Shown here: positions 2,902 through 54,120 of the stretch, piece after piece
How the letters are laid out: each line of letters opens with the position of its first letter
Numbering within the stretch: the first letter of the stretch is position 1
IMG/VR virus record: IMGVR_UViG_3300050821_002228
Origin: a virus
Direction: 5' to 3' (one strand)
Length of the DNA stretch: 64,000 bases
Notes under the pieces: model-generated
Told to the model about the DNA's origin: nothing
Databases searched by the model: none
Seen by the model: the letters and a program-made list of their open reading frames with translations, nothing else
Translations under genes and position numbers: made by a program

Positions 2902-3231
2902 ATGATCACCAGATCTGTTCTCGACACCGAATACCTCGCCTACCCCGAACAGGTCCTGGTGTCCGGTCTCCCCATCAACCCCATCGCCGACACGGTCCAA
3001 TTCGCGTTCATGCCCAACCCCGCCAACGCCAACCCCGCCTCTGGCGACTGGCACACCGGCAGTTGGTACACCACCGGGCAGGGCGGCACCAACGCCTACT
3101 TCGCCGAAATCCTCGTCGGACCCGGCACCGGCGGAATCCCGCTCACCGCAGGCCTGTACAACGTGTGGGTGAAAATCACTGACAGCCCGCAGGTACCCGT
3201 CCGTCTCGTGGACACCCTCCAAATCGTGTAG
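2902..3231 (+). CDS. Conserved phage beta-sandwich protein, possibly virion-associated
   Basis: GGGGG RBS; AGLYNVWVKITDSPQVPV C-terminus resembles BppU-N-like actinophage proteins. Confidence 0.4.
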   Translation: MITRSVLDTEYLAYPEQVLVSGLPINPIADTVQFAFMPNPANANPASGDWHTGSWYTTGQGGTNAYFAEILVGPGTGGIPLTAGLYNVWVKITDSPQVPVRLVDTLQIV

Positions 3232-4783: not shown

Positions 4784-6332
4784 AGAAGCCGAACAAGAGG
4801 CAGCGAAGTATGCACGCATGGACGTGTTCGCTGTTCTCGGTTACGAACCAAACTGTACGGTCCGGGCCAGAGCACGGGACGCGGGCATGGCAGAAGACTG
4901 CCTGCCCGCCCCGTGCGGGATGTGCCCGCAGGAGCTGTTCCACGCCGCTACCGAATCCGATGTGCTGTACGGCGGCGCGGCTGGTGGCGGGAAGTCCGTG
5001 GCTATCGTCATGGAAGCGATGAAGAACGCGGTTCGGCATCCGGGGATCCGGATTCTGTTGCTGCGGCGGACGTTCGACGAGTTGGCGGAGTCGATCTTCC
5101 CTGTGCTTCGCCGCTACCGGTACGGCAACGCCCTGGGTGCCCGGTGGAATGGCACGGAGAAGGAGCTGCGCTGGCCGAACGGCAGTGTTTTGCGATGCCG
5201 GTATCTGGAGTCGGCGGAGGACGCGTCACGCCGTCAGGGCGGCGGGTATCAGCTTCTCCTTGTTGATGAGGCCACGTTGATGCCGCCGGGTGCGGTGGAC
5301 ATCATCAAGTTTGAGCGTCTGCGGTCGGGTGACGGGGTGCCGGTGATCGGTACCCGGATGACGTGCAACCCGGGTGGTCCGTCGCATGGTGAGGTGAAGA
5401 AGCGGTATATCGAGGCCACCGACTACGGCAAACACATCGTCCATGATGAGGGCGGCCTGACGCGGCGGTTCATTCAGGCGAAGGCCACGGACAACCCGCA
5501 CTTGGATGCGGGGTACAGGCACCGTCTGGATCAGATTCCGGACCCGGACCGTCGTGCGGCGATGCGTGACGGCGACTGGGACCGGTGGGCGGGGCAGATG
5601 TTCCCGGAGTTGTCGCGGGACAGGCATGTGGTGTTCCCGATGGAGTTGCCGTCGTCGTGGCGGCGCTATGCCGGGGTTGACTGGGGCTACACGGCGCCGT
5701 GGGCGGTGGTGTGGGGCGCGTTGGATGAGGACAAGCGTCTGTGGGTGTACAGGGAGCTGTATGCGACGCAGGTGGGCGAGAAGGACCAGGCGTTGCGGAT
5801 TAAGGCGGCGGAGGGTTCGGAGCGTCCACGGCGGTTCGCTGACGATGCGCTGTGGGCTACCCGTGGTGACGCTAAACCGATTGCGACTATCTACACGGAG
5901 AACGGGGTTCATCTGGAGGAGGCGGGGAAGGGTCCGGGGTCCCGGATTGCCGGGTGGCAGCGGATCCACTCGTTCCTCGCTGATGCGCCTGCGTGTCTGT
6001 TTCACCGGTCGCAGGGTCTTGAGGAATGCCCGATGATCCACATTTTTGATTCGTGTACTGAGTTGCTGCGGGAGTTGCGGGACCTTCCGCACGCGTCCAG
6101 CGGCAACATTGAGGACGCGGACACCAAGGCCAGTGATCACGCTGCGGACGCCCTGCGGTACATGGTGATCAACCTGGGTGTGGATCAGCGGTTCCACTGG
6201 CCGAAGGACAATCCGGCGGCGTCGCGGGAGATTGATCCTGGGGCGCGTGGGGAGTTCACACCGGCGTATGCGGGTCAGACTATCGGCGGTTTCCCGGTGC
6301 TGCACCCGTCAGGCAACCCGTGGGGCCTGTAG
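4719..6332 (+). CDS. terL: Terminase large subunit (537 aa)
   Basis: Walker A YGGAAGGGKS, Walker B LLLVDEA, TCNPGG coupling motif, nuclease GVDWG and DHAADALRY. Start taken at ATG 4719. Confidence 0.95.
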   Translation: MTDDLETYRLERLQLLQELKRKEAEQEAAKYARMDVFAVLGYEPNCTVRARARDAGMAEDCLPAPCGMCPQELFHAATESDVLYGGAAGGGKSVAIVMEAMKNAVRHPGIRILLLRRTFDELAESIFPVLRRYRYGNALGARWNGTEKELRWPNGSVLRCRYLESAEDASRRQGGGYQLLLVDEATLMPPGAVDIIKFERLRSGDGVPVIGTRMTCNPGGPSHGEVKKRYIEATDYGKHIVHDEGGLTRRFIQAKATDNPHLDAGYRHRLDQIPDPDRRAAMRDGDWDRWAGQMFPELSRDRHVVFPMELPSSWRRYAGVDWGYTAPWAVVWGALDEDKRLWVYRELYATQVGEKDQALRIKAAEGSERPRRFADDALWATRGDAKPIATIYTENGVHLEEAGKGPGSRIAGWQRIHSFLADAPACLFHRSQGLEECPMIHIFDSCTELLRELRDLPHASSGNIEDADTKASDHAADALRYMVINLGVDQRFHWPKDNPAASREIDPGARGEFTPAYAGQTIGGFPVLHPSGNPWGL

Positions 6333-10008: not shown

Positions 10009-10686
10009 ATGGGTCAGGCACAGACGCCGTATGCAGCGGCAACCAATGTCATTACCCCCGGCGTCCTCAACGTGGACAGCGTCAACTCCGGCGTGGCAGC
10101 CAACGTCAACCAGTTTGCCGGGCCGGTGTCGCTGCTGTCGGGCGGTACGAAGGCGTGGATGTACCAGTACCTTGAGCCGACGGGCACGAAGGCGTCGAGC
10201 ATTGACGGCCGTATGTCGGCAACGGGCACGTCCACGGTCGCGACCTCCGGCACCGTCGTGGCGTTCGCGATCCCGATCGAGGCCGGTCTGCTGATCTCCA
10301 ACATGACCCTGGTGTCTATTGCTGCTGAGGCGACGGGCACGCATGCGTGGGTGGGTATCGCCAACAGCGCCGGTACGGTCCTGGGTGTCAGCGCCGACAA
10401 CACCGGTGCGGCGTATTTCGCCGCTAACACCGTCACCACCACGGCTATCGCTACGCCGTTCACCACCACCTACACCGGCTTCTACTACGCCTTTGTGAAC
10501 GTGACGGCAACGACTGTTCCGACGTTCGCTGCTGCCCCGGCGTTGACGCATGCGGCTATCGCCACGGTGGCGCCTATCTACTGTGGTACGGCGTTGACTG
10601 GCCAGACGACGCCGGTTGCGGTGGGTTCGTCGTTGGGCACGATCACCCCGACGACGAACCACCAGATCTACACGTACCTGACGTAA
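10009..10686 (+). CDS. Probable minor virion protein (Thr/Ala-rich beta domain)
   Basis: GAGGAG RBS; visibly paralogous to the C-terminal domain of 13617..15416. Confidence 0.6.
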   Translation: MGQAQTPYAAATNVITPGVLNVDSVNSGVAANVNQFAGPVSLLSGGTKAWMYQYLEPTGTKASSIDGRMSATGTSTVATSGTVVAFAIPIEAGLLISNMTLVSIAAEATGTHAWVGIANSAGTVLGVSADNTGAAYFAANTVTTTAIATPFTTTYTGFYYAFVNVTATTVPTFAAAPALTHAAIATVAPIYCGTALTGQTTPVAVGSSLGTITPTTNHQIYTYLT

Positions 10687-10734: not shown

Positions 10735-10754
10735 AGCCGATCACCGAGGAGACG

Positions 10755-11228
10755 GTGTCCGACATGGCTAAGCCTACGTGTAATACCAAGGGGTGCCGTG
10801 CCCCGGCGTCTGTTGCTGGGTTGTGCTCGTATCACTTTCGTGAACAGTCGTTTGTTGATTCAGTACCGCAGTATCCGGCGTCCGATCCGGAACCGGACTG
10901 CGTTCCCCGGACCATCGCTAAGACAGCCCACGGCAAGTACGGGCTAACGGATGAAGCGTATAGCCGGTTGTGGTCAGAACAACGTGGCACGTGCGGTATC
11001 TGCCGCCGGGAGTTCACTGACGAACGCCGACCATGCATTGATCACAACCACCGTACGGGGCATGTGCGCGGGATCCTTTGCGTGGCGTGCAACACGGGTC
11101 TGGGGCATCTGGGGGATACAACCGCGCGGGTTCGGCGTGCGTACGAGTACCTGCGGGATGCTGACGAACGGAACCGCGTGGCACCCCCGAACCAGGTCAA
11201 GCCCCGCCGGAAGCGCACAAAGCGTTGA
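10755..11228 (+). CDS. Endonuclease VII-family (His-Me finger) endonuclease
   Basis: YGLT..Y..L..EQ.G.CGIC...IDHNH.TG.VRGILC..CN.GLG signature. Confidence 0.9.
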   Translation: MSDMAKPTCNTKGCRAPASVAGLCSYHFREQSFVDSVPQYPASDPEPDCVPRTIAKTAHGKYGLTDEAYSRLWSEQRGTCGICRREFTDERRPCIDHNHRTGHVRGILCVACNTGLGHLGDTTARVRRAYEYLRDADERNRVAPPNQVKPRRKRTKR

Positions 11229-13616: not shown

Positions 13617-15416
13617 ATGCCGCTGCCAGGCGATATCAACACCATCACGGTGACCGGTACATACCTGAACCCGTCGGGTACGGCTATGTCCGGGACGGTC
13701 ACGTTCGCGCCGTCTACCCCGATCCTGGTGGATACTGTCGGCGCGGTTCTGCTGGGCGGTATCGGGACCACGGTGGCGCTGAACGCCTCCGGCGCGTTCT
13801 CCGTGGTTCTGCCGTGTACCGGCCAGTTGACGCCGTCTAACTGGTCGTGGACGGTCACGGAGACCATCGCGGGTATGTCGCCCCGGTCGTACAGCATCAA
13901 CATCCCGCATTCGCTGGGTTCCACTGTTGATATTTCGACCCTGTCACCGATCGTGCCCGCCAGTATCACCGTGTCCTCTCCGGCGTGGCTGAACGTCATG
14001 TCGTACGGCGCTACCGGCAACGGCACCACCGATGACACGGCGGCGATCAAGAACGCTATGGCGGCGGTACCGGCGAACGGCGGCACCGTGTACTTCCCGC
14101 CCGGGTCGTACCTGATCTCCTCGACGCTGACAGTGTCCACGACCGGGACCACGTTCCAGGGTGACGGCTGGGGTTCACAGATCCGGTATGACGGCACAGT
14201 AGTGACCCCGGCTATCAACGCCTCAGCGAACATCCGTGTCAACGCCCGGTGGCTGCGTCTGTCACAGACCAACGCCACCACCACCGGCGTCGCTATCGAC
14301 GCATCCAACTTCAACATGTCGGTGTTGGAGATGCTGCTGATTGACGGCGGCGGCGCGTCGGGTGTGGCACCGAACACCGGTATTCTGATGAACGCCTCCA
14401 CCTGCCACTACAACCAGGTTCGTGCGTGCCGGATCAGCTACGGCGGGGCGTCATCGAAGGGCATCTCGATCACCGGCGGTTCGCATTCCAACAGCATCAT
14501 CGATTGCCGGATGCTGCCGCAGACAGACGACGCCGCATCGTCGGGTGTCTACATCACCAACTCGCATTCCACCAACATTGTTCATGCCGATGTTGAGGCT
14601 GGTTCCGGTAACGGCATCTTCCTCGACACGGCCGCGCATTCGACCACTATCACTGGCGGCTACGCGGACACGATGAACATCGGTTTGAAGATCTCGTCCG
14701 GTGTGATTGCCCCGATGATTGTGGGCGGTACCTGGCAGAACGGGTCCACGGCTAACGTTCAGAACAACGGGGCGGTTGCGCCGGTGTTCCAGAACATGTG
14801 GCCGAACAGCGGCACGACCACGTACAACCATGTGGAGATGCCGAACACCGACCTGTACACGGTCAACGGGGTGCAGGTGCCCGGCAACCACTACTTCGGT
14901 TCGGATCTCGGCCTGATCGCATGGACGTTCGATCCGGCGATAACGTCGGGTTCTGCGTCGGCGGTGTCGGGGACGGTGTTCCTGGCGCAGGTGGTGTTGC
15001 GGTACGCGCAGACGATCAACAAACTGTCGGTGGCTATCGCGACCGGCGCGGCGACGGTGACGGCGAACCAAAACTTCCTCGGCCTGTACACCGCCGCAGG
15101 GACCCGTGTGGCGGTCACGGCGGCTGGGGCTATCGATGCGGCGATTACGTCGGCTGGGAACCTGATGCAGGCTGTGGTGACGCCGTATGCAGCAGCGGCC
15201 GGGACGTATTGGGTGGCGTATCTGAACAACGCGACCACGGCGGCGTTGTTGCAGCGCGGGACCGGCGCTACCCTGTCGGTTTCGAACGTTGGTCTTACCG
15301 GGGCGTCGATGCGGTATGCGGTGAACGGCACTGCCCAAACCACCCTTCCGGCGTCGATTACCCCGGCGTCGAACTCGGCGACCAACGCGTTTCCGATGTG
15401 GGCTGCGGTCGGGTAG
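13617..15416 (+). CDS. Beta-helix (pectate lyase-3-like) spike or depolymerase 2
   Basis: LNVMSYGATGNGTTDDTAAIKNA..GGTVYFPPGSY glycanase-like motif, between N- and C-terminal modules shared with neighbouring genes. Confidence 0.8.
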   Translation: MPLPGDINTITVTGTYLNPSGTAMSGTVTFAPSTPILVDTVGAVLLGGIGTTVALNASGAFSVVLPCTGQLTPSNWSWTVTETIAGMSPRSYSINIPHSLGSTVDISTLSPIVPASITVSSPAWLNVMSYGATGNGTTDDTAAIKNAMAAVPANGGTVYFPPGSYLISSTLTVSTTGTTFQGDGWGSQIRYDGTVVTPAINASANIRVNARWLRLSQTNATTTGVAIDASNFNMSVLEMLLIDGGGASGVAPNTGILMNASTCHYNQVRACRISYGGASSKGISITGGSHSNSIIDCRMLPQTDDAASSGVYITNSHSTNIVHADVEAGSGNGIFLDTAAHSTTITGGYADTMNIGLKISSGVIAPMIVGGTWQNGSTANVQNNGAVAPVFQNMWPNSGTTTYNHVEMPNTDLYTVNGVQVPGNHYFGSDLGLIAWTFDPAITSGSASAVSGTVFLAQVVLRYAQTINKLSVAIATGAATVTANQNFLGLYTAAGTRVAVTAAGAIDAAITSAGNLMQAVVTPYAAAAGTYWVAYLNNATTAALLQRGTGATLSVSNVGLTGASMRYAVNGTAQTTLPASITPASNSATNAFPMWAAVG

Positions 15417-15425
15417 GGGGATGGT

Positions 15426-15716
15426 ATGACGTTGGTGAATGGTCAGCCGCCGGACGGCACGGTGTGGCTGGATGACGGCCACAATCACGGGTATGTGCCG
15501 GTGACGGCGCATGACCGGGATGAGGTGGTGGCGATCAACGAGTTTCACCGGGCTGGGGACGGCTGGTGTTACGGGTTTGTCGCGTTCCGTTCGTACAGTC
15601 CTGAACACGGCTGGGATGTGCTGTCCATGGATCCGTTGACTCTGTCGCCGTCGTTGCTGTGCCGGGCGTGTGGGAACCACGGGTTCATCCGTGACGGGGT
15701 GTGGGTGGCGGCGTAG
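15426..15716 (+). CDS. DUF6527-like protein
   Basis: C-terminal PLTLSPSLLCRACGNHGFIRDGVW matches the recalled family motif. Confidence 0.65.
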   Translation: MTLVNGQPPDGTVWLDDGHNHGYVPVTAHDRDEVVAINEFHRAGDGWCYGFVAFRSYSPEHGWDVLSMDPLTLSPSLLCRACGNHGFIRDGVWVAA

Positions 15717-15734
15717 TGGGTACCGTAGGGCTCT

Positions 15735-15944
15735 ATGGAGTACATGCAGGCACATGAGATCGCGACAATGAACAAGGTTCCGGTGCGGCGTACGTCGTGG
15801 CCGCAGGGGCATCATGCAGTGCATGTTGCGGAGAACCGGTGGCGGTTGCACACGGATCATCCGACGCCGCAGGATTGGGTGCCGTCGGAGGCTGATCAGA
15901 ACGCGAAGGACTGGGAGCAGCACGTTCCGCCGCATCAGGCGTAG
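15735..15944 (+). CDS. DUF2829/Tad2-like small protein (candidate immune-signal sponge)
   Basis: N-terminal A..I....VPVRRTSW and C-terminal WVPSEADQNAKDW match the family pattern R..W...WxPSxxDxxAxDW. Confidence 0.6.
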   Translation: MEYMQAHEIATMNKVPVRRTSWPQGHHAVHVAENRWRLHTDHPTPQDWVPSEADQNAKDWEQHVPPHQA

Positions 15945-15952
15945 GTCAAGGT

Positions 15953-15995
15953 GCGGATACCCGCCGGGCACGCGTCAGTGTCGGCGGGTATCCGC
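15953..15995 (+). terminator. Strong hairpin after the Tad2-like gene
   Basis: GCGGATACCCGCCG/CGGCGGGTATCCGC perfect 14-bp stem. Confidence 0.7.
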
Positions 15996-16049
15996 TAGGC
16001 GCCTGGAGTGGGGTCCTGCGCCTTGTGAGACTGTACCTGGAGGTGTGTG

Positions 16050-16220
16050 GTGTTTGCTGTGATCGCTGCGGTTCTGTTCGGTGTGGCGTTCGTCCTGAAC
16101 GGCGCCGGGTCGCATACCAACGTGTGGTTGTCGCCGATGTCGCTTCTGTTGCTGGGGTTGGCGTCGTTGGCGCTTCACATCGCCGGTGTGGGGTCTGGGG
16201 TACGCATCACTCGCGGCTGA
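16050..16220 (+). CDS. Small two-TM membrane protein (56 aa; not in the ORF track)
   Basis: GGAGG RBS, GTG start; MFAVIAAVLFGVAFVLNG...MSLLLLGLASLALHIAG. Confidence 0.65.
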   Translation: MFAVIAAVLFGVAFVLNGAGSHTNVWLSPMSLLLLGLASLALHIAGVGSGVRITRG

Positions 16221-16261
16221 GTTAGGATCACGCTAGTACTGCCCGTGATGGGCGGTTTCCT

Positions 16262-16621
16262 GTGATGGGAGCTGGCGTGATGCCGAAGGAACAGATCAAC
16301 TTTCCGCAGTGGCGGAAGCATGGGCATGGGCTGCCGGGGACGTCCGGTTCTGATGAGGACGCGACGGCTGAGATCGACGACGTGTTGGTTGTGCGGTGGC
16401 ACGACAACTCGTTGGTCGGGGGTTATGTGCAGATGGCGTTGGTGTCGCAGGAGCCGATGCCGTGGGCGGATTTTGAGGCGGCGGGTGTGGATGTGCATCC
16501 GGGTCCGGTGATGAACACGGAAACGGAACGGTTCATGCCGGTGTTGTCGCGGTCTGACATCAACCGTCTGATCAAGGTGTTGCGGCGGGCGCGGGACAGC
16601 GCATATGGACGTGACGAATAG
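16262..16621 (+). CDS. Hypothetical protein
   Basis: 119-aa ORF ending LSRSDINRLIKVLRRARDSAYGRDE, directly before the tRNA array. Confidence 0.6.
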   Translation: MMGAGVMPKEQINFPQWRKHGHGLPGTSGSDEDATAEIDDVLVVRWHDNSLVGGYVQMALVSQEPMPWADFEAAGVDVHPGPVMNTETERFMPVLSRSDINRLIKVLRRARDSAYGRDE

Positions 16622-16723
16622 CACCGTACAGGGTTAGCATTGCGGTACCGGAAAGGACAGGGTTCGATCCCCTGCCGGGCGCCTCGGCTCCTGGTGGTGT
16701 ACGGGATGCACGTTCCGGAGAAT

Positions 16724-16797
16724 GGGTCCGTAGCTCCAATTGGAAGAGCGGCTGTTTTGCAAACAGCAGGTTGTGGGTTCGAGTCCCACCGGTTCCA
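16724..16797 (+). tRNA. tRNA-Ala(TGC)
   Basis: Full cloverleaf; GCTGT-TTTGCAA-ACAGC; G3:U70 alanine identity pair; U4:U69 mismatch; no CCA. Confidence 0.9.
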
Positions 16798-16856
16798 CTG
16801 CCTGATAGGCGGTGTCTGGTACTTCACGGGCACATGCACCGTCTAGAGGGCAGCCA

Positions 16857-16930
16857 CGGCGTGTGGCCTAGTTGGTAAGGCACCTGATTTGGGATCAGGA
16901 GATGCGCAGGTTCGAGTCCTGCTACGCCGA
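16857..16930 (+). tRNA. tRNA-Pro(TGG)
   Basis: CGGCGTG/TACGCCG acceptor; CCTGA-TTTGGGA-TCAGG; canonical T-arm; A73. Confidence 0.95.
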
Positions 16931-16934
16931 CGTT

Positions 16935-17019
16935 GGAGAGGTGGCAGAGCGGTAATGCGACGCGTTGCTAGCGCGATGCCCGGGGCAACCCGGCCGGGGT
17001 TCGATCCCTCGTCTCTCCG
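16935..17019 (+). tRNA. tRNA-Ser(GCT)
   Basis: GGAGAGG/TCTCTCC acceptor, G73, loop TTGCTAG, long variable arm. Confidence 0.9.
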
Positions 17020-17070
17020 CGTCCCCGCTGTGTGATCTTTTCTAGTCCTGGGAAACCCGCAGTGGGGCAT

Positions 17071-17151
17071 GGTAGGTACGCCAATGGTGGCAAACGCTCT
17101 CGAAAGGCGTGGCGGGTAACACCGTAGCGGGTTCGATTCCTGCACCTACCG
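17071..17151 (+). tRNA. tRNA-Ser(CGA), atypical D-arm
   Basis: GGTAGGT/ACCTACC acceptor, G73, ACGCT-CTCGAAA-GGCGT, long variable arm; A8-C9 and a 6-nt D-loop. Confidence 0.85.
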
Positions 17152-17163
17152 CTCGGTGTCGTT

Positions 17164-17246
17164 GGTAGGTCCGGCATTGGTGCGCTAAGCGGTCTTGAAA
17201 GCCGTGGCGTCTGACGGCGTTGGGGGTTCGAATCCCTCACCTACCG
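17164..17246 (+). tRNA. tRNA-Ser(TGA), atypical D-arm
   Basis: GGTAGGT/ACCTACC acceptor, G73, GCGGT-CTTGAAA-GCCGT, long variable arm; C8-C9. Confidence 0.85.
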
Positions 17247-17250
17247 CGAT

Positions 17251-17336
17251 GGAAGGTCCGACATTTGGCGTGTCAAGCGCGTTGGAAGCGCGTGCCGGTT
17301 TAACACCCGGGGTCGGTTCGAATCCGGCACCTTCCG
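17251..17336 (+). tRNA. tRNA-Ser(GGA), atypical D-arm
   Basis: GGAAGGT/ACCTTCC acceptor, G73, GCGCG-TTGGAAG-CGCGT, long variable arm; C8-C9. Confidence 0.85.
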
Positions 17337-17338
17337 CC

Positions 17339-17743
17339 CTACGGCAACCAGTCAAGCCCTACGTAGAACCGGATGGCGTTCATATCCCGCTTATCCAACC
17401 CAACATGCGGATCGGTACCTACGAACAGGGCACGGCGGCCGGTCGCATGGACCCGGTCGGCTAGGTCCGGCATCGCCTGCCCGTGGAACATGTCGTCCAC
17501 CCACACCAGCGGCCGTGGCGCGCCGTACAGCGGCACCTGGTCCTTACTGACCACCGGCAGATCCGGCAGCCCCAGATCTGGGGACAGTTCAGTGTTGGCC
17601 TGGTAGCCCCATGACGTGGCCCATACGAGTTCGCAGGTGTCAGACAGTTCCCGTAGCCACACGCCGTGTTCCGGGTTGAGTTCGAAATCTCCCCGGAACG
17701 GCAACAGGACACCGTCCACGTCTAACGCAATGACTGGTTTCAC
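17339..17743 (-). CDS. HAD phosphatase of the Swiss-Army-Knife RNA-repair-like type
   Basis: IALDVDGVL motif I, VWATSW, LGLPDLPVV and RPLVWVDD motif IV. Confidence 0.75.
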   Translation of the reverse strand: MKPVIALDVDGVLLPFRGDFELNPEHGVWLRELSDTCELVWATSWGYQANTELSPDLGLPDLPVVSKDQVPLYGAPRPLVWVDDMFHGQAMPDLADRVHATGRRALFVGTDPHVGLDKRDMNAIRFYVGLDWLP

Positions 17744-17779
17744 AGTTCCTCCGTCAATGGCCGCCGTGGGCTGCCCCTG

Positions 17780-17977
17780 CTAGAGGCGGTAGCCGGGTGA
17801 GGTGGTGCGTGCGGCGTTTTCGAACGTGTCCAGCCGCCGCCGCAGTTCCCGGCATTCCTGGTACAGCCGGTGGAGTTCCCGTACAAGCGCCCGCATCGCC
17901 TCAACCGACATGTACATGCCCGGCTGCGCATTCTCCAACGCCGCCAGCAACGCCGGGAATTCGTCTTGGTTATCCAT
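17780..17977 (-). CDS. Small coiled-coil hypothetical protein
   Basis: 65-aa ORF upstream of the HAD gene; shares a divergent intergenic region with 18002. Confidence 0.45.
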   Translation of the reverse strand: MDNQDEFPALLAALENAQPGMYMSVEAMRALVRELHRLYQECRELRRRLDTFENAARTTSPGYRL

Positions 17978-18001
17978 GCCCTAATCGTAGGAGGTTGGTT
18001 C

Positions 18002-19489
18002 ATGGCTGATCAGCCAGACGTCAAAGACGGCGTGATGATTGCCCTGTATCCGTCGGCCACCGACACGGCCCGCTATGTCCTGATCGATGGGACACCGGCG
18101 GACGAGATGCACGTGACGATGGTGTACCTGGGGCACACGGACGAGGTCGATGCGGACGCGGTGAAACGTGCCGTCGGCGCGTTGGCGCCGCGTCCGGCGT
18201 TCACCGCCAACGTGTCCGGTCATGCCCGGTTCACCGGTGATGAACAGGACGTGATCGTTGCGTTGATCGACGCCCCGGAGATTGAGCAGCTACGGCGGGA
18301 CCTGATCGACGTGCTAGCCATCGAGGACATCGGCAACGCCTCCGACCACGGGTACACGCCGCATATGACGTTGATGTACGTCAACCCCGACGATCCGGCG
18401 CCGTTCCGGCGGCTGGACACCGACCCCATCGGGTTCGACACCGTGTGGGTGGTGTATGGGGAGGAGCGGACGGCGTTTCCGCTGTCAGACGACACTGCCG
18501 AATCCATCCGCCCGTACGCCCGCACCGCCTACGCGCAGGGCTGGGCCGCATCGGGCGGCCCGATGACTGATGAGGTCCGGGCGGGGTGTATCGCGGTCAT
18601 GGACCTGTGTGTGGAACACGCCCACGAACCGGATGTCCTGGAGGTCGCGCTTCACCTGGGGCATTTGGAGGGTGTGTGGGCGCAGGTGTTCGCACGCCGG
18701 GAGGCCCTGTACAGGGCGCATATTCATGCGGTGTTGAAGGCGTGGCGGGCTGCGTTGGACGGCGTGGACGTCGCCGGGGCCGTCCAGATCTTCCGCCAAC
18801 AGGTCGGCCTGTCTGAGGCGGTGGACCGGGAGGCGCTGCGTCGCATGAAGGAGGCGGCTAGAAACGCCGCTGTGCGCCTGTTGCAGTGGGTCCCGGGTAA
18901 GGCGGCGTGGCAGGGGCTGCGGGACGCTATGCGGGCTGTGGTGACGTCTGGGCGGGCTGAGGGGTATGCGTCGGCGTTGGCGGTTGCGGCGTCGAAACAG
19001 CAGATGATCGGCTTCGACTTCGACATTGCGTTCCAACACGCCTATGACGCCATGGAGAACCTGGGTGATGCGTGGGCGGCGGCTGATCCGTGGTTGGAGC
19101 GGATGGTGGGGCGGGCGGCGGACGAGTTCGGCCGGACACTAGGGGATCTCGCATCACAGGGCGCCGACTATGAACAGATGGTCGCGGCCGGGCTGGACGT
19201 GTTGCAGGACACCACGGCGGACAGGGACATTGTCGGGTTCATTGTGGACTGGGCGGCGTCTACCGGCATGTCTAGGGGCGCGTTGGACCTGTATGCGTCT
19301 GAGGGTGTGCAGCAGGTGTCTTGGCTGACCGCCGGTGACGGCCGTGTGTGTCCTGTGTGTGAGACCAACGGGCAGGAATCGCCGTTCCTGATCACCGACT
19401 TCCCGACGATGCCCGCGCATCCGCTGTGCCGGTGTGTGGCGTCAGCGGAGTTCACTCTTTCCCCCGACTACGGGGGTTTCTTCACGTAG
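18002..19489 (+). CDS. MuF/SPP1 gp7-like minor head protein with an N-terminal 2H phosphoesterase domain (495 aa)
   Basis: AGGAGG RBS. HVTMVYLG and PHMTL 2H motifs in the first ~160 aa. C-terminal WLTAGDGRVCPVC...HPLCRC MuF signature. Confidence 0.85.
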   Translation: MADQPDVKDGVMIALYPSATDTARYVLIDGTPADEMHVTMVYLGHTDEVDADAVKRAVGALAPRPAFTANVSGHARFTGDEQDVIVALIDAPEIEQLRRDLIDVLAIEDIGNASDHGYTPHMTLMYVNPDDPAPFRRLDTDPIGFDTVWVVYGEERTAFPLSDDTAESIRPYARTAYAQGWAASGGPMTDEVRAGCIAVMDLCVEHAHEPDVLEVALHLGHLEGVWAQVFARREALYRAHIHAVLKAWRAALDGVDVAGAVQIFRQQVGLSEAVDREALRRMKEAARNAAVRLLQWVPGKAAWQGLRDAMRAVVTSGRAEGYASALAVAASKQQMIGFDFDIAFQHAYDAMENLGDAWAAADPWLERMVGRAADEFGRTLGDLASQGADYEQMVAAGLDVLQDTTADRDIVGFIVDWAASTGMSRGALDLYASEGVQQVSWLTAGDGRVCPVCETNGQESPFLITDFPTMPAHPLCRCVASAEFTLSPDYGGFFT

Positions 19490-28804: not shown

Positions 28805-29019
28805 TAGTCGTCTGCCCCTCCGTGGTCGTCTTCCAAATGCCAGTTCCACAGCATGTGCCAGGCGTCACGGCGCCGCTTGAACACCTTCCGCCACCCGCAC
28901 TCACACCCGGCGATCCAGCGGTGACGACGCAGACACCAGCCGTTGCCGCACTCCTGCTTCAGGTCGGACAGGTGAACGCGGGTGACGTCGATGAACGGCC
29001 GGGGCTTAAAAGTCGCCAT
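28804..29019 (-). CDS. Small Cys-rich protein
   Basis: CGNGWC and CECGW motifs. Confidence 0.45.
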   Translation of the reverse strand: MATFKPRPFIDVTRVHLSDLKQECGNGWCLRRHRWIAGCECGWRKVFKRRRDAWHMLWNWHLEDDHGGADD

Positions 29020-29926
29020 AGTTCACCTGCCAGCACTCCAGACCCATCCGCCGCCACAGGGCCACAACCCGGTCCCGGTCGTCCAGCACGAACCGGACGT
29101 CGTACAGGTCGCGAACGTGGGCGTCGAACAGTTCGGCCTTCACGATGTCGTCGCCGCGCCGGTCGCCCTCGGCCCGCATCCACAGCTCGTCGTACACGAT
29201 GCCGTTATCGTCCAACCACCGCTCGGTGTGGGCCCGGTATTCGGACTGACGGCCGGACAGGAGGATGATGCGGTCCCGGATCCCGCCCCAGCCGCCGCTG
29301 TTGCGGCACAGGTCGAGGATCCGCCGAACCTCCGGGTTCACCAGGTCGGTTCCGACCTGTTCGAAGTCGTAGGGGCCGCGTCCGTTGTGGATCGCCAACG
29401 TTCCGTCGATGTCGCAGATGACCGCCGGGGGCAACGCGTCGTTGCGGCGGTACGGCTCCGGCGCCACCATATCGTTCATGGGGTGGCTGGCCAGTCGCCA
29501 CTTGCTGCGACGCATCCGCTCGTGCATGTCCTTGATGACCGCCGGGCCCACGGACCGTTCCCGTGCCTGGTCGCGGTCAATGCAGGTGTCCACGGGCACG
29601 TGGGTGAAGTCGTGGATGTGGAACGTTGCCCGGCCGCCGACGAGCCGCTTGTACCGGTTCGGCAGGCGCGCGACAAGGTGGGTGTTGTCAACGATGATGT
29701 CGAATCCGTCGTTGATGGCGCCGAGGATCGCGGCGTCCTGCACCTTCAGCACAGTGTCCTCGTTGGCGCCGGGGAACCGGCGGGACCCGTCGTTCAGGTC
29801 CATCATCATGCGGATGTCGTCGAGGTTGACGCGGCGGACACGGCCGTTGGATTCGGCAACGAGCTTGTTGGCGTAGGTGGTTTTCCCGGATGCGGGCAAA
29901 CCGGTGGTCAAATGGATGGTGGACAC
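29006..29926 (-). CDS. pnk: Polynucleotide 5'-kinase/3'-phosphatase (T4 PseT-like)
   Basis: TGLPASGKTT P-loop; RVNLDDIR; HAD motif CDIDGTLA; LSGR; VLDDRDRVV. Confidence 0.92.
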   Translation of the reverse strand: MSTIHLTTGLPASGKTTYANKLVAESNGRVRRVNLDDIRMMMDLNDGSRRFPGANEDTVLKVQDAAILGAINDGFDIIVDNTHLVARLPNRYKRLVGGRATFHIHDFTHVPVDTCIDRDQARERSVGPAVIKDMHERMRRSKWRLASHPMNDMVAPEPYRRNDALPPAVICDIDGTLAIHNGRGPYDFEQVGTDLVNPEVRRILDLCRNSGGWGGIRDRIILLSGRQSEYRAHTERWLDDNGIVYDELWMRAEGDRRGDDIVKAELFDAHVRDLYDVRFVLDDRDRVVALWRRMGLECWQVNYGDF

Positions 29927-30454: not shown

Positions 30455-31150
30455 CTAGTCCTCGGTGTCGTAGGTGTAGTGGTGGTTGCGGACGCGTAGG
30501 AGCCATTGTTCGGCGGTGTCGCGGTCGGGGTGGTCGGGCAGGGGTGTCCCATCCCCATCCATGATCATTTCGACGCCGTGGATGTAGTCGTGGCCCTGGA
30601 GCGGGTGGGCGAGTATCCAGTCGGCGAGGTCCCGGACCATGTCGGGGTCCTTCAGCCGGACCGTCAGTTGCCCGGTGGTGTACAGCTCCCGGCCCTGTTC
30701 GAGGAGCCGGATGATGTGCCGGGCGTGTTTGGCCGCGCGGCGTTCCGGGATGTCGGCGGCGAACGACCCGTTGCCGCGTGCGATCAGTTTCCCGAGCTGC
30801 TGCCGGGCGTACCCGATATAGGCGTCACGGACCTGACGGCCGCACAGGAACGCGTCCCGGATCCCGACGAGTTCGGCGCCGAGTTGGGTGATGAAGTCGT
30901 ACTGGTCGAGCCACAGCAGCTCGTTCACCGACGGGTTGCCGTTCAGGGCCAGCCGCACAAACTTCCCGGCCTCATGCATGGTGCTGTCGGGGTCGTGGGT
31001 GACCATCGACTCTTGGGGTTTCGTCAGCCCGTGGAACGCGATGGTGGGGGCTGCGAACACGCCCAGCGTGTCCACGTCGGACTCGGGGGTGTCGAGGCCG
31101 TAGGCGGTTGATCCGACAATGCCCTTCAACAGGGTGTTGACGGCGGTCAC
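30455..31150 (-). CDS. Pol-beta-superfamily nucleotidyltransferase (RlaP/Nuc-transf-like)
   Basis: GSTAYGLDTPESDVD (GS..DxD), KFVRLALNGNPSVNELLW, KHARHIIRLL; GGAGG RBS. Confidence 0.85.
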   Translation of the reverse strand: MTAVNTLLKGIVGSTAYGLDTPESDVDTLGVFAAPTIAFHGLTKPQESMVTHDPDSTMHEAGKFVRLALNGNPSVNELLWLDQYDFITQLGAELVGIRDAFLCGRQVRDAYIGYARQQLGKLIARGNGSFAADIPERRAAKHARHIIRLLEQGRELYTTGQLTVRLKDPDMVRDLADWILAHPLQGHDYIHGVEMIMDGDGTPLPDHPDRDTAEQWLLRVRNHHYTYDTED

Positions 31151-32406
31151 TACGCCTCCTCGTTGGTATCGGCGCGGAACGGGTCGGTGGCGGCGGGACG
31201 CAGGGACTTCCACACGTGCGGCCCGATGTCCCGATGGTCGTATTTGATGAACATCCCGGAACGGATCACCGGGTCCGTCGCCAGCTCCATCACATGCCGG
31301 GCGAACGTCTTCCGGCGCTCCGGCCCGTACTGGCGGCCCATCTCGTCCTCGGTCTTGGTCCGGGCGACGGCGACCAGGTCCGTGATCTGCTGCGTGATCG
31401 CGTAGAACTGCCGGTCCAGATCGGCCATGACGCCGCGAACCCACTGATCGAACTCGTCCGGGACGTCGTCGATCAGGGCGCCGATAGCGCCGCCGGGGAT
31501 CGCGGACATGCGGATGGCCTCGGAGAACGTGACACCGATGGTTTTCGACAGCTCGTGGGCGTCGATGGTGGCGAACCGGTCGGCGCCGTACGCCTGCCAG
31601 ACGTCGCGGGCGTTGATGCCTGTCAACACCTTGTGGAGACGCACATACTCCGCGAACTTGATCTTGGCGCGGATGCCGGACTGGTTGAACCGGATCACCC
31701 AGCCCTCGCTGTCCGACCCGCCGACCGGCTCACCGTTCAGGTCCTTGTTCCCGTCGGCCAACGCCATCAGCAGCGACATCGGGAACTTGTCGAACGCCAC
31801 CCACTGCCGCACCGGGTACCCGATCGGTTCCCAACCGTCCGCGACCTCATGCAACGGGATCTCCTGACCGTTGACCCCGTACGCGCCGATCAGGCACAGC
31901 CCGGTCAGGTTGTCGTCGTAGCGGACCACGATCCGGTTCTCGGGATAGATGATCTCGCACAGGTACGTGATCCCCGCCTCCAGCCGGGACGTGTCGCAGC
32001 CGTCCAACCGGCGCTGCGCCCACTGTGCCTGCTCAGACGTGAACGATCCCTTCGACGCCACGTGCCATTTGCCCTGGTACCAGAACATGATGCCCAACGA
32101 CCCGTCCACCTTCTCGAAGATCGAGAAGTCTTCCTTCGGCAGCGGCGGCGCGTAGTCCTGACCGCTGTCGTGCTCGGAGACGTTGAAGAACTTCGGGAAC
32201 GGCCACGCCACGACCGTCCCGGCGTCGTCGGCGATCAGGCCCCGGCAGCGCGTGGTGACGTTGTTCCAGTGCCGGTCATACTGGCAGTGCCGGGTGTACG
32301 TGTAGATGGTCAGGGGTTCGGTGGGGTGACGGCGCGTCTGGACGTATCCGGCGTCGATCTCCTCCGCGAGGGTGCCGGGCGCGAACAGGTCGGCGAGGCT
32401 GGTCAC
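31150..32406 (-). CDS. ATP-dependent RNA ligase (T4 Rnl1-like, 418 aa)
   Basis: CRGLI, PFPKFFN, motif I EKVDGSLG, TYLCEII, EGWV and KIKFAEY. Confidence 0.92.
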   Translation of the reverse strand: MTSLADLFAPGTLAEEIDAGYVQTRRHPTEPLTIYTYTRHCQYDRHWNNVTTRCRGLIADDAGTVVAWPFPKFFNVSEHDSGQDYAPPLPKEDFSIFEKVDGSLGIMFWYQGKWHVASKGSFTSEQAQWAQRRLDGCDTSRLEAGITYLCEIIYPENRIVVRYDDNLTGLCLIGAYGVNGQEIPLHEVADGWEPIGYPVRQWVAFDKFPMSLLMALADGNKDLNGEPVGGSDSEGWVIRFNQSGIRAKIKFAEYVRLHKVLTGINARDVWQAYGADRFATIDAHELSKTIGVTFSEAIRMSAIPGGAIGALIDDVPDEFDQWVRGVMADLDRQFYAITQQITDLVAVARTKTEDEMGRQYGPERRKTFARHVMELATDPVIRSGMFIKYDHRDIGPHVWKSLRPAATDPFRADTNEEA

Positions 32407-32816
32407 TGCTTCTCCTTTTGCACGGCCGTGGCCGCGTCGTATGCGTTCTTGAAAAACAGGTTGTTTTTCAGGTCGGGGCGGCTGGCGAGGAACGCGTGGA
32501 ACACGTAGGCGTCGTTCTGGAACATGCGTCCGATGTTGCTGGGTGTCAGCCACCGGCACACGTCGGCGTCGGTGAGGTTCCAGGTGACGGGGTCGGTGAC
32601 GCGGGTTCCGGAGTTGGGGCGGGCGGTGAGCATGCCCTTCCCCTCCATCAGCCGCAGTGCCTCCCGGAACGCGGTCCGGGACACGCCCAGTTCCGTCCGC
32701 AGCTTGTCCGGGTCGATCCGTTCCCCCGGCGTGTATTTGCCGTTGGCGATCCACTGGCCGATCCATTCGGCGCATTGCCACGTGCGTGTGGTGATGCGTG
32801 GCGTGTATTCGGTCAC
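32403..32816 (-). CDS. GntR-family HTH regulator (short)
   Basis: IANGKYTPGERI...LGVSRTAFREALRLMEGKGML..RPNSGTRV. Confidence 0.85.
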   Translation of the reverse strand: MTEYTPRITTRTWQCAEWIGQWIANGKYTPGERIDPDKLRTELGVSRTAFREALRLMEGKGMLTARPNSGTRVTDPVTWNLTDADVCRWLTPSNIGRMFQNDAYVFHAFLASRPDLKNNLFFKNAYDAATAVQKEKQ

Positions 32817-52319: not shown

Positions 52320-52712
52320 CTAGTGGTGAGCCAAACTCAACAGCTTCCGCAGAATGTTCGCCGGTGTCCCATTCTTTCCGGCCGGGGACTTCAGCCGGTC
52401 GATTTCGGCCATCAGGACACGAACATCTGTGACGCCCTTAACCAGGTTTTCGGCGTCTACGCTCGCTAGGAACGATTCCGCGCAGCCGCCGTCGGATGCC
52501 CGTTCGGCCTCTGGCTGTTCGTCGCAGTAGAACCCGTCCTTAACGGTGACTACGGCGGCGGTGTAGACCCGGCAGGACAGGCAGCGGCAGCCCTTTTCGC
52601 CGTGGCTGTGGGCGTCCACGGTGAACCCGGCGGCGTGGTTCGATTCGCTGCGGCGCCGGATCTCACGTAACACGTCGTCCGGCAGCGGTTCGGCGGTCAC
52701 GACTTGATCCAA
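52320..52712 (-). CDS. Hypothetical protein
   Basis: CRCLSC motif; DVRVLMAEIDRL tail. Confidence 0.5.
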   Translation of the reverse strand: MDQVVTAEPLPDDVLREIRRRSESNHAAGFTVDAHSHGEKGCRCLSCRVYTAAVVTVKDGFYCDEQPEAERASDGGCAESFLASVDAENLVKGVTDVRVLMAEIDRLKSPAGKNGTPANILRKLLSLAHH

Positions 52713-53494
52713 TACCGGGCAACGGGCTCGTCGAACACCGACGTGGACGGCACTAGCTGGGCCAGCAGATTATCCGGGTCGGCTTTGAAGTCCCACGCCG
52801 CCTCGGTCTCCCAGTGGTGCCGGGGTTCCGGCCATGACAGGGTGCGGCTGCCGTCGCCGTTGTCGGTGACCGTCCCCTGCCGGGGTGTCCACTCAACATG
52901 CCGGACCTGTTGGCCACGCTGGACTTGCGGCGGGTAGTCGTCGAAGTTGGTTCCGGCGTCGGCCATCATCTGTTTCATTCCGGTGATGTTGACGCCGTGC
53001 AGTTGTTGGTGGCTGAACATGGAGCGGGCGGCCATGGACACGGCGTTCCGTTTCGCGTCCTTCTGCCGCCACACAAAGTAGTTGACGGTTTCCACGGCGT
53101 CGGGCATGACGAACGCGCGGGCGTCGAACATGGGCCGGTCGCGGCGGTGCCAGGCGAGTTGGGTGGTGGCGACCGACGCGGCCACCGAGACAATCTTTTG
53201 GAGGCCGCCGCCGAACCACGGTTCGGTGTTCAGGCCGGGGTAGTCGCACACCAACAGGCTGATCTCGTCAGACTGGTGGTACGCGAACACGGCCCCGTCA
53301 ATGTCCTGGCACATGGCCGTGGCGACGGCGGACATCTGCTCGACAAACTCCATGTCGAACGGCTTCTCGGCGGCGCGGAGGTACCGGTGGAATCCCCGGC
53401 CGTCCACGCGGATGATCAGCGGGAGGCGCCGGGGGAACCGGTGTTGCCACACCTGTTCGTACTGTTTCATCCGGTCGCCTAGCGAGTCCTGCAT
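52697..53494 (-). CDS. thg1: tRNA(His) guanylyltransferase Thg1-like 3'-5' polymerase
   Basis: RMKQYE, RVDGRGFH, QSDEISL, QKIVS, FDARAF and WRQKDA.RN motifs. Confidence 0.92.
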   Translation of the reverse strand: MQDSLGDRMKQYEQVWQHRFPRRLPLIIRVDGRGFHRYLRAAEKPFDMEFVEQMSAVATAMCQDIDGAVFAYHQSDEISLLVCDYPGLNTEPWFGGGLQKIVSVAASVATTQLAWHRRDRPMFDARAFVMPDAVETVNYFVWRQKDAKRNAVSMAARSMFSHQQLHGVNITGMKQMMADAGTNFDDYPPQVQRGQQVRHVEWTPRQGTVTDNGDGSRTLSWPEPRHHWETEAAWDFKADPDNLLAQLVPSTSVFDEPVARYWIKS

Positions 53495-54120
53495 TACTCG
53501 ACCGCCGACGTACGGTCTTCGTCGGTGAACGAGTAGGAGCCGCCCTTGGACCCACGGGTGACGAGCCCGGACAGGGTCGTGAACGCGGAGCGGGTGTTGC
53601 CGGTGTCGTAGGTCATGGACCCGTCGCGGCTGATGCCGTAGGACGCGGCGACGGTGATGGCGTCCTGGTTGGCGCCGAGGTAGATGAACGTCCACCCCTT
53701 TGCGGTGCGCTTCTCGATCTTCTCCTTGATCGTTTCGGCGTTGAACTCCTTCGACGAGTTCTCGTGGCCGTCGGTGACGATGACCACGATGACGTCCGGC
53801 CGCTGGTCCTTCGCCACCGGCTTCCACTTGGCCTTGACGGCGTTGATGGTGCGTCCGATGGCGTCGAGGAGCGCGGTGCCGCCGCGCGGCGTCAGCTCGT
53901 ACAGCGGGACGTCGGCGATGTCCACGTTCTCGTACACCGGCTCGTACTCGGTGTCGAACTGGTACAGGGACGCAATGGTTCCGGTCGGGAACTCGTGGAA
54001 CTGGTCGGCGAGGAAGCCCTGGAGGCCCTGTTCGGTGTCCCGGCGGCATGACGCCATGGACCCGGAACGGTCCATGATGATCACGATGTGGCGGTTGACG
54101 GTCATCATGCTGTCGGGCAT
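53494..54120 (-). CDS. von Willebrand factor A domain protein
   Basis: MIDAS DRSGSM, PRGGTALLDAIG, VTDGHENSS. Confidence 0.9.
   Translation of the reverse strand: MPDSMMTVNRHIVIIMDRSGSMASCRRDTEQGLQGFLADQFHEFPTGTIASLYQFDTEYEPVYENVDIADVPLYELTPRGGTALLDAIGRTINAVKAKWKPVAKDQRPDVIVVIVTDGHENSSKEFNAETIKEKIEKRTAKGWTFIYLGANQDAITVAASYGISRDGSMTYDTGNTRSAFTTLSGLVTRGSKGGSYSFTDEDRTSAVE

Follow-up and report, generated by a model that had tools for sequence, protein, structure and literature searches.

Four consecutive tRNA-Ser genes of a soil-metagenome phage, three of them with a remodelled core

The tRNA Array in the 64-kb Window

The DNA stretch analysed in this study (the window) comprises 64,000 nucleotides of the IMG/VR virus record IMGVR_UViG_3300050821_002228, which comes from a soil-metagenome actinophage. 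It carries a tRNA array in which four consecutive tRNA-Ser genes with the anticodons GCT, CGA, TGA, and GGA occupy positions 16935–17336. The three of them that read the UCN codon box (N, any nucleotide) have a remodelled core and are the main subject of this work.

ARAGORN predicted seven tRNAs in the window: Met, Ala(TGC), Pro(TGG), Ser(GCT), Ser(CGA), Ser(TGA), and Ser(GGA). Six of them form a tight plus-strand array in the order Ala-Pro-Ser(GCT)-Ser(CGA)-Ser(TGA)-Ser(GGA), and the tRNA-Met(CAT) gene lies separately at 1410–1484 on the same strand. These calls agree with the initial annotation, which had noticed the four tRNA-Ser genes and their capacity to read all six Ser codons. The four Ser anticodons combined indeed cover the six codons and correspond one-for-one to the four isoacceptors of a Streptomyces genome. 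The further statement that only three other tRNAs (Met, Ala, and Pro) are present is true of the window, but the window is only a slice of a source contig of 103,965 bp.

When scored with the Rfam tRNA model RF00005, the tRNA-Met, canonical but for a C1xU72 mismatch, reached 63.2 bits, and the canonical tRNA-Ala (16724–16797) and tRNA-Pro (16857–16930) reached 57.9 and 66 bits, respectively. The product of the tRNA-Ser(GCT) gene (16935–17019) scored 44.3 bits; it is a class II tRNA of nearly canonical form, in which U8 and G73 are present and position 26 is a single nucleotide. The UCN-reading tRNAs are encoded at 17071–17151 (Ser(CGA), remodelled scaffold type A), 17164–17246 (Ser(TGA), type C), and 17251–17336 (Ser(GGA), type C). 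None of the three encodes CCA, and a T is present at position -1 in all of them.

The Remodelled Core of the UCN tRNAs

The acceptor stems are GGTAGGT/ACCTACC in Ser(CGA) and Ser(TGA) and GGAAGGT/ACCTTCC in Ser(GGA), with G73 throughout, as had been described for the trio before. The earlier description of a missing U8 and of AA before the anticodon stem was also borne out. Positions 8 and 9 are A8C9 in Ser(CGA) and C8C9 in both Ser(TGA) and Ser(GGA), and an AA linker separates the D-stem from the anticodon stem in all three tRNAs. The D-stems have 3–4 bp and the D-loops 6–8 nucleotides. The D-arm of Ser(CGA) reads GCC-AATGGT-GGC, with an alternative pairing of 4 bp and a 4-nt loop; its anticodon loop is CUCGAAA, and its variable arm contains four standard pairs. 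In Ser(TGA), the D-arm GGC-ATTGGTGC-GCT is followed by the AA linker and the anticodon loop CUUGAAA, and in Ser(GGA), the D-arm GACA-TTTGGCG-TGTC is followed by the AA linker and the loop UUGGAAG. The variable arms of the tRNA-Ser of the window are 16–18 nucleotides long with stems of 4–5 bp, and the T-arm is normal.

At the curated Rfam thresholds (gathering scores of 29 bits for RF00005 and 47 bits for the tRNA-Sec model RF01852), only the Met, Ala, Pro, and Ser(GCT) tRNAs were recognized, and all three UCN tRNAs remained below the 29 bits of RF00005. Their best Rfam match was tRNA-Sec, at 42.2 (TGA), 33.1 (GGA), and 32.0 (CGA) bits, all below the 47 bits of that model. tRNA-Sec is a substrate of seryl-tRNA synthetase (SerRS) that lacks the canonical core. 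Like it, the UCN tRNAs have G73, a long variable arm, and a tiny xYGG-type D-loop, and they lack a U8-A14 core. The type A tRNAs (Ser(CGA) of the window and the members from loci L001, L002, and the Arthrobacter phage Zucker, described below) resemble tRNA-Sec because their D-arm admits a second pairing, a 4-bp stem closed by a 4-nt AYGG loop. Meanwhile, we rejected the possibility that the UCN genes are tRNA-Sec genes: their anticodons are those of Ser and not UCA, the acceptor and T stems have 7/5 and not 8/5 bp, and the D-stem has 3–4 and not 6 bp. The 5-bp anticodon stem preceded by a 2-nt linker differs from tRNA-Sec as well.

Comparison with Actinomycete tRNA-Ser

To have a host-type reference, we read 16 actinomycete tRNA-Ser. 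These were the four tRNA-Ser of Streptomyces olivoverticillatus, a carrier of a related prophage, and the 12 best actinomycete matches to R1, a covariance model built from eight phage members that include the three UCN tRNAs of the window. All 16 have U8, a 3-bp D-stem, a D-loop of 11–13 nucleotides, one nucleotide at position 26, and U33; position 9 is C in 14 of them and G in two. The 3-bp D-stem and C9, which the initial annotation had counted among the oddities of the trio, are thus present but ordinary in actinomycete tRNA-Ser (3-bp stem in 16/16, C9 in 14/16). By the same reading, the lack of U8 and the AA before the anticodon stem are atypical. The genuinely unusual features of the core are only three: a nucleotide other than U at position 8, the short D-loop, and the 2-nt linker.

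In other respects, the UCN tRNAs look like class II tRNA-Ser of the host. Their anticodons are those of Ser, their long variable arm is flanked by a single unpaired nucleotide on either side, and G73 is kept together with the pairs G1-C72 and G2-C71 (invariant in all 12 family members described below). The acceptor stem has 7 bp and the T stem 5 bp, G18G19 is present, and the T-loop follows GTTCRAnyC; the 3-bp D-stem and the frequent C9 are shared as well. The anticodon loops of Ser(CGA) and Ser(TGA) are identical to those of Streptomyces, and the loop UUGGAAG of Ser(GGA) differs from the Streptomyces UUGGAAA at position 38 only. The differences lie in A8 or C8 versus the U8 of the host, a D-loop of 6–8 versus 11–13 nucleotides, a linker of two nucleotides versus one, and a variable-arm stem that is 1–2 bp shorter. 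The three UCN tRNAs consequently lack the canonical core; Ser(GCT) of the window has U8 and a single linker nucleotide.

SerRS reads the variable arm, G73, and the first acceptor pairs, and it does not read the anticodon. Judging by their sequences, the UCN tRNAs retain the SerRS identity elements, i.e., the variable arm with its 1-nt junctions, G73, G1-C72, and G2-C71, and would be expected to be charged by this enzyme.

The R1 model was searched against 151 genomes sampled across the class of the Streptomyces that carries the prophage. Four of these genomes (G007, G030, G032, and G043; G032 is the source of L054, one of the 12 actinomycete matches that were read) are unpublished, and the conclusion is independent of them. 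The best R1 match in the 151 genomes scored 58 bits, the top matches were all normal tRNA-Ser(TGA), and the UCN tRNA-Ser of Streptomyces scored 40–42 bits. Meanwhile, the members from IMG/VR and the window scored 84–101 bits (96.4 for Ser(CGA), 93.1 for Ser(TGA), and 86.5 for Ser(GGA)), and that of phage Zucker scored 72 bits. Ser(GCT) of the window reached only 28.1 bits. The two models separate the groups in opposite directions: with RF00005, the phage tRNAs remain below 29 bits and the host tRNAs reach 52–57 bits, whereas with R1, the phage tRNAs score 84–101 bits and the host tRNAs at most 58.

Membership of the family was defined by an R1 score of at least 70 bits together with a linker of two nucleotides and a D-loop not exceeding 9 nucleotides, and the CGA, TGA, and GGA tRNAs of the window have all three properties. 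Since these three helped to build R1, independent support for the family comes from the members in L088, L109, L154, L208, and Zucker (72–91 bits). The initial annotation had named a covariance comparison with bacterial tRNA-Ser as a check, and a C8/AA scaffold common among ordinary actinobacterial tRNA-Ser as an observation that would speak against it. The comparison sets the phage scaffold apart (58 versus 72–101 bits), and the scaffold was not found in the 151 genomes searched or among the 16 tRNAs read.

A Phage-Borne tRNA-Ser Lineage

Members of the family were found in about ten viral contigs (among them the loci L001, L002, L031, L033, L088, L109, L154, and L208) and in the Arthrobacter phage Zucker. 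No capsid protein similar to that of the window was found in any cultured phage, and the terminase of the window is at most 38% identical to the terminases of Arthrobacter phages. IMG/VR contains 34 loci with a related capsid protein, and only the four closest ones (89–94% identity) have tRNAs at the position of the array. Two further members at these closest loci were missed by ARAGORN and spotted by eye. The member in L088 belongs to a 132-kb provirus record.

The tRNA-Ser(tga) of Zucker (ON645346.1, 52384–52465) is of scaffold type A: A8 is followed by C9, the D-stem of 3 bp closes the loop AACGGT, and the AA linker is present. With R1 it reaches 72 bits and with RF00005 24 bits, and it adjoins a tRNA-Ser(gct) gene. 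Unlike the source of the window, Zucker is an unrelated cultured phage of 53 kb with only two tRNAs, both for Ser (tga and gct). GenBank labels its gene as a plain tRNA-Ser without any comment on the structure. We found no description of this tRNA-Ser scaffold in the literature.

Several other searches gave no members. When the array was compared by megablast with 50,697 phage records, no match was obtained, and an exact 29-mer of Ser(TGA) was not found in IMG/VR. The matches in IMG/VR to the 15-mer GGCGGGTAACACCGT and to an 18-mer scaffold pattern were mostly due to chance, and R1 upheld only L088, L109, L154, and L208. The IMG/VR search for relatives by means of the 2H-MuF protein (see below) confirmed none; the relatives came from the search with the capsid protein instead.

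An alignment of 12 members showed standard pairs in all 252 of the 252 stem cells, and 15 of the 21 pairs have changed on both sides. For example, the D-stem pair 11-24 occurs as C-G, G-C, and A-U across the family. None of 500 shuffles equalled the real signal, and slid controls gave 40–54% pairing. It should be noted that the alignment was fitted to the model and is therefore biased in that direction, but the signal is far above such a bias. As all stem pairs are kept and 15 of the 21 show compensatory changes, the sequences argue that the UCN tRNAs are selected, structured RNAs that are not decaying, and that they probably function as tRNAs.

The members move and change in different ways. 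Ser(CGA) of the window is 98% identical to the CGA tRNA of L002. Ser(GGA) is just 76–77% identical to its counterparts in L002 and L033, although the capsid proteins are ~89% identical. Both scaffold subtypes occur among the CGA tRNAs of close relatives, and Ser(TGA) is found at 99% identity with different flanks in a second soil sample (soil run X2). In seven of nine elements, the UCN-type gene and a Ser(GCT) gene are neighbours, separated by a non-coding spacer at most. The three UCN tRNAs of the window keep U33, whereas C33 replaces it in five members from relatives: L002_GGA (6027–6109), L031_CGA (3135–3217), L033_GGA (343–425), L033_CGA (165–252), and L088_CGA (5878–5961). Their loops are CCGGAAA or CCCGAAA, and their stems are perfectly paired.

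The arrays of the relatives contain further unusual genes. L031 carries at 2740–2845 a Ser(GCT)-like gene with normal acceptor, D-, variable, and T-arms, the anticodon "loop" of which has 20 nucleotides with a small palindrome and could be a tiny intron, an insertion, or the sign of a pseudogene. The Ser(CGA) of L033 is an aberrant one of 88 nucleotides. In the slot of the Ser(TGA) of the window, L002 (5937–6026) and L033 (253–342) have a conserved structured RNA of ~85 nucleotides, whose terminal stem of 10 bp and inner stem both show compensatory changes between the two phages; neither ARAGORN nor R1 called it a tRNA. L208 encodes three tRNA-Leu (cag, gag, and caa; 10199–10352 and 10737–10813) of 74–77 nucleotides without the long variable arm, and a 79-nt tRNA-Tyr with the anticodon at position 30. 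Thus, other class II tRNAs of these actinophage arrays are reshaped as well. On a Streptomyces chromosome (G001, contig C3, 585577–585663; L047), we also observed an 87-nt class II tRNA-like gene with the acceptor GGAGAGG, G73, and G33 in its odd anticodon loop, AGCCAGU. It was assigned to Trp(cca) by ARAGORN and scores just 33 bits with RF00005.

The tRNA Repertoire of the Source Contig and Its Relatives

An exact 40-mer from the first positions of the window had no match in JGI metagenome contigs. According to the gene map of the source contig, a TROVE/Ro60 gene with gene-free gaps of 3.4 and 1.2 kb next to it and another RNA ligase gene are located 5' of the window. Exact matches of 20–22 nucleotides to the T-arms of Ser(TGA) and Ala lie 8.4 kb (20 nucleotides, within the 3.4-kb gap) and 11.4 kb upstream of the window, so that further tRNAs are likely to be encoded there. 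The region ~5.3–11.4 kb upstream of window position 1, which includes the TROVE/Ro60-like gene (538 amino acids) and the extra RNA ligase (PF09414), is probably a second tRNA region, perhaps with Y-RNA. Ro-like proteins also adjoin tRNA genes in the Streptomyces phage NootNoot.

The closest complete relative, G152, is 102.9 kb long, has terminal repeats, and encodes a capsid protein that is 89% identical to that of the window. It contains an array of 19 tRNAs for 15 amino acids, none of which is Ser, Ala, or Pro. In addition, it has an Ala-Pro-Ser mini-array in the head module and a lone tRNA-Met that is syntenic with the one in the window. The amino acids among Ser, Ala, and Pro are precisely those missing from the large array, so that the mini-array rounds off a general repertoire in this phage. 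A TROVE gene is absent 5' of the large array of G152, and synteny with the region upstream of the window thus could not be used. In the same genome, a Tet/JBP-type dioxygenase, a P-loop nucleotide kinase 3, and an FAD oxidoreductase are encoded consecutively at 79.1–81.4 kb (L210), which suggests DNA base hypermodification.

Complete relatives with a capsid identity of at most 79% have either no tRNAs or just four, and the tRNA cluster of the provirus G157 consists of Met, Ser(cga), and Ser(gct). The tRNA-bearing clade has a guanine and cytosine (GC) content of 63%, versus 64.5–70% in the relatives in which no tRNA was found, and TCT makes up 7–12% of its Ser codons, versus 0–5.6% in the same relatives. 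The exception in both respects is L018, a short contig without a tRNA found, with 63.0% GC and 10% TCT. The lower GC content and the 2–5 times higher use of TCT in the tRNA-bearing clade fit codon supply. The initial annotation had proposed that the array is a replacement set for one amino-acid family rather than codon-usage support. The first part is not supported by G152, in which the Ala-Pro-Ser mini-array fills the gap left by the 19-tRNA array, and the second part is not supported by the codon usage and GC content of the clade.

RNA-Repair Genes and Other Neighbouring Features

The window encodes several RNA-repair proteins. The gene convergent with the array (17339–17743, minus strand) encodes a HAD phosphatase of the Swiss-army-knife (SAK) RNA-repair type (Pfam HAD_SAK_2, E 7e-7, 30.1 bits with a cut-off of 27.5); among the loci searched by tblastn, it was found only in the window and L002. 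On the same strand, we identified a polynucleotide kinase-phosphatase (PNKP) of the T4 Pnkp type (29006–29926; Pfam HAD_PNKP, 1.6e-49, and AAA_33, 1.1e-14), an RlaP-family nucleotidyltransferase of the RNA repair pathway (30455–31444; Pfam RlaP, 1e-16), an RNA ligase of the T4 Rnl1 type (31150–32781; Pfam RNA_lig_T4_1, 6.6e-16), the true start of which is probably downstream of the start of the longest open reading frame (ORF), and a Thg1-like 3'-5' nucleotidyltransferase of the tRNA 5'-end repair family (52697–54142; Pfam Thg1, 9.5e-24).

The T4 Pnkp and Rnl1 proteins reseal tRNA-Lys cut by the anticodon nuclease PrrC. The window likewise encodes a PNKP and an Rnl1-type ligase, and with RlaP, the Thg1-like protein, SAK-HAD, and the 2H domain described below, these form a T4-like tRNA repair kit, which argues that hosts of this phage attack tRNA. 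Unlike in the T4 system, no target nuclease is known here, the PNKP and ligase genes are located 12–15 kb from the array, and they also occur in a relative without tRNAs. As this complete relative, G153, has PNKP and Rnl1 without any tRNA, the repair kit is not tied to the tRNA array.

The plus-strand gene at 18002–19489 encodes a LigT-like 2H phosphoesterase fused to the C-terminus of a MuF-like head protein (Pfam 2_5_RNA_ligase2, E 4e-15; PHROG matches). Full-length fusions of this kind were observed in L002, L012, L015–L018, and L020–L022, and the MuF part alone in L001, L031, and L033. Since MuF occurs with or without 2H among the relatives, the 2H domain is a swappable N-terminal cargo. 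A functional tie between this gene and the array was rejected, as tblastn also found the fusion in relatives whose loci hold no tRNA.

Two structured elements accompany the tRNA genes on the plus strand. The spacer between Ser(GCT) and Ser(CGA) (17020–17070) folds into a hairpin of -22.1 kcal/mol. A corresponding hairpin is present in L002 (5799–5855) and L033 (111–164), where the pairing is kept (8–11 bp); the letters of the stem vary from phage to phage, with compensatory changes in L002 and L033, and the loop motif CTGGGAA(A)C is constant. The hairpin may be a processing or regulatory element. Just 5' of tRNA-Ala, at 16625–16681, lies a T-arm-like hairpin (CAGGG-TTCGATC-CCCTG) without a complete tRNA. 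ARAGORN at 80% thresholds called no tRNA there, and a mascRNA-like match was weak (16.6 bits). This hairpin is probably the remnant of a lost tRNA gene. A scan of 15300–18100 for promoters and terminators found none, which says little for an actinophage.

Discussion

We propose that the UCN tRNAs are functional, SerRS-charged tRNA-Ser of a mobile phage lineage that complete a large tRNA repertoire, and that their remodelled core is inherited and tolerated. We give this reading, in which expression and charging are predicted from the genes, an even chance of being right. The four tRNA-Ser would be transcribed together with Ala and Pro as the tail of a plus-strand late-region unit, released by the host RNase P, provided with CCA by the host enzyme, and charged by the host SerRS. 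The three UCN isoacceptors would derive from a phage-borne lineage with a core that lacks U8, has a D-loop of 6–8 nucleotides, and carries an extra nucleotide at position 26, with type A having effectively a 4-bp D-stem and a 4-nt xYGG loop, as in tRNA-Sec. What SerRS, EF-Tu, and the ribosome need would be retained: the long variable arm with junctions of the Ser type, G73, the 7/5 geometry, G18G19, and the T-loop. The lineage would spread as single-gene cassettes. As SerRS does not read the anticodon, this could be changed freely, and a single scaffold would therefore have come to cover CGA, TGA, and GGA. The Ala-Pro-Ser mini-array would most likely complete a much larger repertoire located elsewhere in the ~104-kb genome, and the full repertoire would largely free the translation of this lower-GC phage from the host tRNA pool. 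The odd core would then be inherited within the lineage and accepted by SerRS in the way that tRNA-Sec is, and it need not be an adaptation of the phage from which the window comes.

Several observations weigh against this proposal. Only the UCN tRNAs are remodelled, and Ala, Pro, Met, and Ser(GCT) are canonical, which pure supply does not account for; nor does supply account for the fact that Zucker and the provirus G157 keep almost only a Ser pair. CGA, the member that is retained most widely, decodes UCG alone; this is the top Ser codon of the phage itself (37%), and in a high-GC host it is probably not rare. Furthermore, the wider tRNA content outside the window is a deduction, and transcription, processing, and charging are predictions.

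An alternative, which sharpens the idea of the initial annotation, is that the remodelled core keeps the recognition by SerRS but is handled poorly by those enzymes of the host that target tRNA-Ser, so that the six Ser codons are still decoded when the host tRNA-Ser is disabled. The main candidate toxins are nucleotidyltransferases of the MenT/AbiEii type, whose docking involves both the variable arm and the core, with Ser-specific anticodon nucleases of the VapC type as further candidates. Such an escape is a plausible and coherent idea, and resistance to toxins is a proposal made from sequence; we consider it possible but doubtful. It would agree with the restriction of the scaffold to UCN tRNA-Ser and to phages, with the Ser pair or set forming the whole or nearly the whole tRNA complement of Zucker and G157, and with variable-arm stems that are 1–2 bp shorter than those of the host. 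Shortening of the D-loop lowers the catalytic constant (kcat) from 0.96 to 0.43 per second (PMC11162799, PMC11541572). Genes of the AbiEii/MenT family are present in 43 of the 151 actinomycete genomes, including the Streptomyces with the related prophage. The heavy investment in tRNA repair (PNKP, Rnl1, RlaP, Thg1-like, and SAK-HAD) points in the same direction, but a complete relative without tRNAs has the repair genes too, and in the nearest relative, the mini-array completes a general repertoire. Phage tRNAs have been proposed to evade anticodon nucleases by mutations of the anticodon loop (van den Berg et al. 2023; PMC10264068), and C33 in place of the near-universal U33 in five members from relatives is a loop change of this kind in phage copies of toxin-targeted tRNAs. 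Mycobacteriophages are reported to avoid Ser gga/tga/cga tRNAs, as VapCs cut them (PMC10264068), whereas the lineage described here carries such tRNAs. In the window itself, however, the differences lie in the core and the anticodon loops are host-like (CGA and TGA identical, GGA different at position 38 only), so that nucleases reading the loop are not evaded. Where the variable arm meets the anticodon stem and the T stem, each junction has one nucleotide, again as in the host, and this is the feature by which MenT3 distinguishes Ser from Leu. The same element is read by SerRS and MenT3, and evading one while keeping the other is not guaranteed. The host-like loops and junctions thus argue against the simplest versions of escape. 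In its full form, i.e., a mobile phage tRNA-Ser family with a Sec-like core, in some members with C33, that evolved as a SerRS substrate but a poor MenT/AbiEii/VapC substrate for toxin-proof decoding of the six Ser codons, we regard the idea as tentative and rather unlikely.

The odd core might also be explained by relaxed constraint on degenerating duplicates of little or no use. Instability of the array among close relatives is seen from the 20-nt loop of L031, the 88-nt Ser(CGA) of L033, and the T-arm relic at 16625–16681, and the UCN trio scores below the Rfam tRNA threshold. Nevertheless, all 12 members have intact helices in which compensatory changes are frequent, and the variable arm and T-loop are retained along with G18G19 and G73. 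The same odd features also recur in distant phages (terminase at most 38% identical to those of Arthrobacter phages; Zucker at 72 bits). We consider decay improbable. We find it quite improbable, too, that the UCN RNAs have a role outside translation, either as decoys for a tRNA-binding toxin or as substrates of the phage's own Thg1-like or RlaP enzymes. The genes for these two enzymes in the window, the nearby SAK-HAD and 2H genes, and the structured 85-nt spacer that is not a tRNA at the position of Ser(TGA) in L002 and L033 would suit such a role, but the anticodon stem-loops are intact and host-like, and the correct Ser anticodons exactly cover the codon box. Such coverage is needed for decoding and not for a decoy. 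In mycobacteriophages, it is established that a phage may integrate into a host tRNA gene, destroy it, and carry the replacement (PMC10865867). For tRNA-Ser, such a tRNA-dependent lysogeny would accord with the fact that more distant relatives (capsid identity of 74–76%) are Streptomyces prophages. One tRNA would suffice for this, not four, and the prophage relatives have no tRNA within 10 kb of the capsid gene, nor does the one provirus record that was searched whole have any. In addition, the nearest complete relative has direct terminal repeats, and a Pfam scan of 38 ORFs of the window, which was not exhaustive, found no integrase. This explanation is very improbable.

The tRNA-Ser lineage described here bears on a wider question. 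Phage tRNAs are common, and their purpose, codon supply or counter-defence, is debated. Here, a phage-only tRNA-Ser lineage can be separated from host tRNA-Ser by a covariance model and shows clear purifying selection. Its cultured representative Zucker, the only tRNAs of which are a Ser pair, makes the question of supply versus defence directly testable for one amino acid. As RF00005 misses the UCN genes and ARAGORN missed some members in relatives, censuses of phage tRNAs under-count such genes. If the escape from toxins proved to be true, this would be the first case of counter-defence by remodelling of the tRNA core and not by a change of the anticodon loop. If the remodelled core turned out to be no more than drift that is tolerated, it would still show to what extent SerRS, EF-Tu, and the ribosome can manage without the canonical tRNA core.

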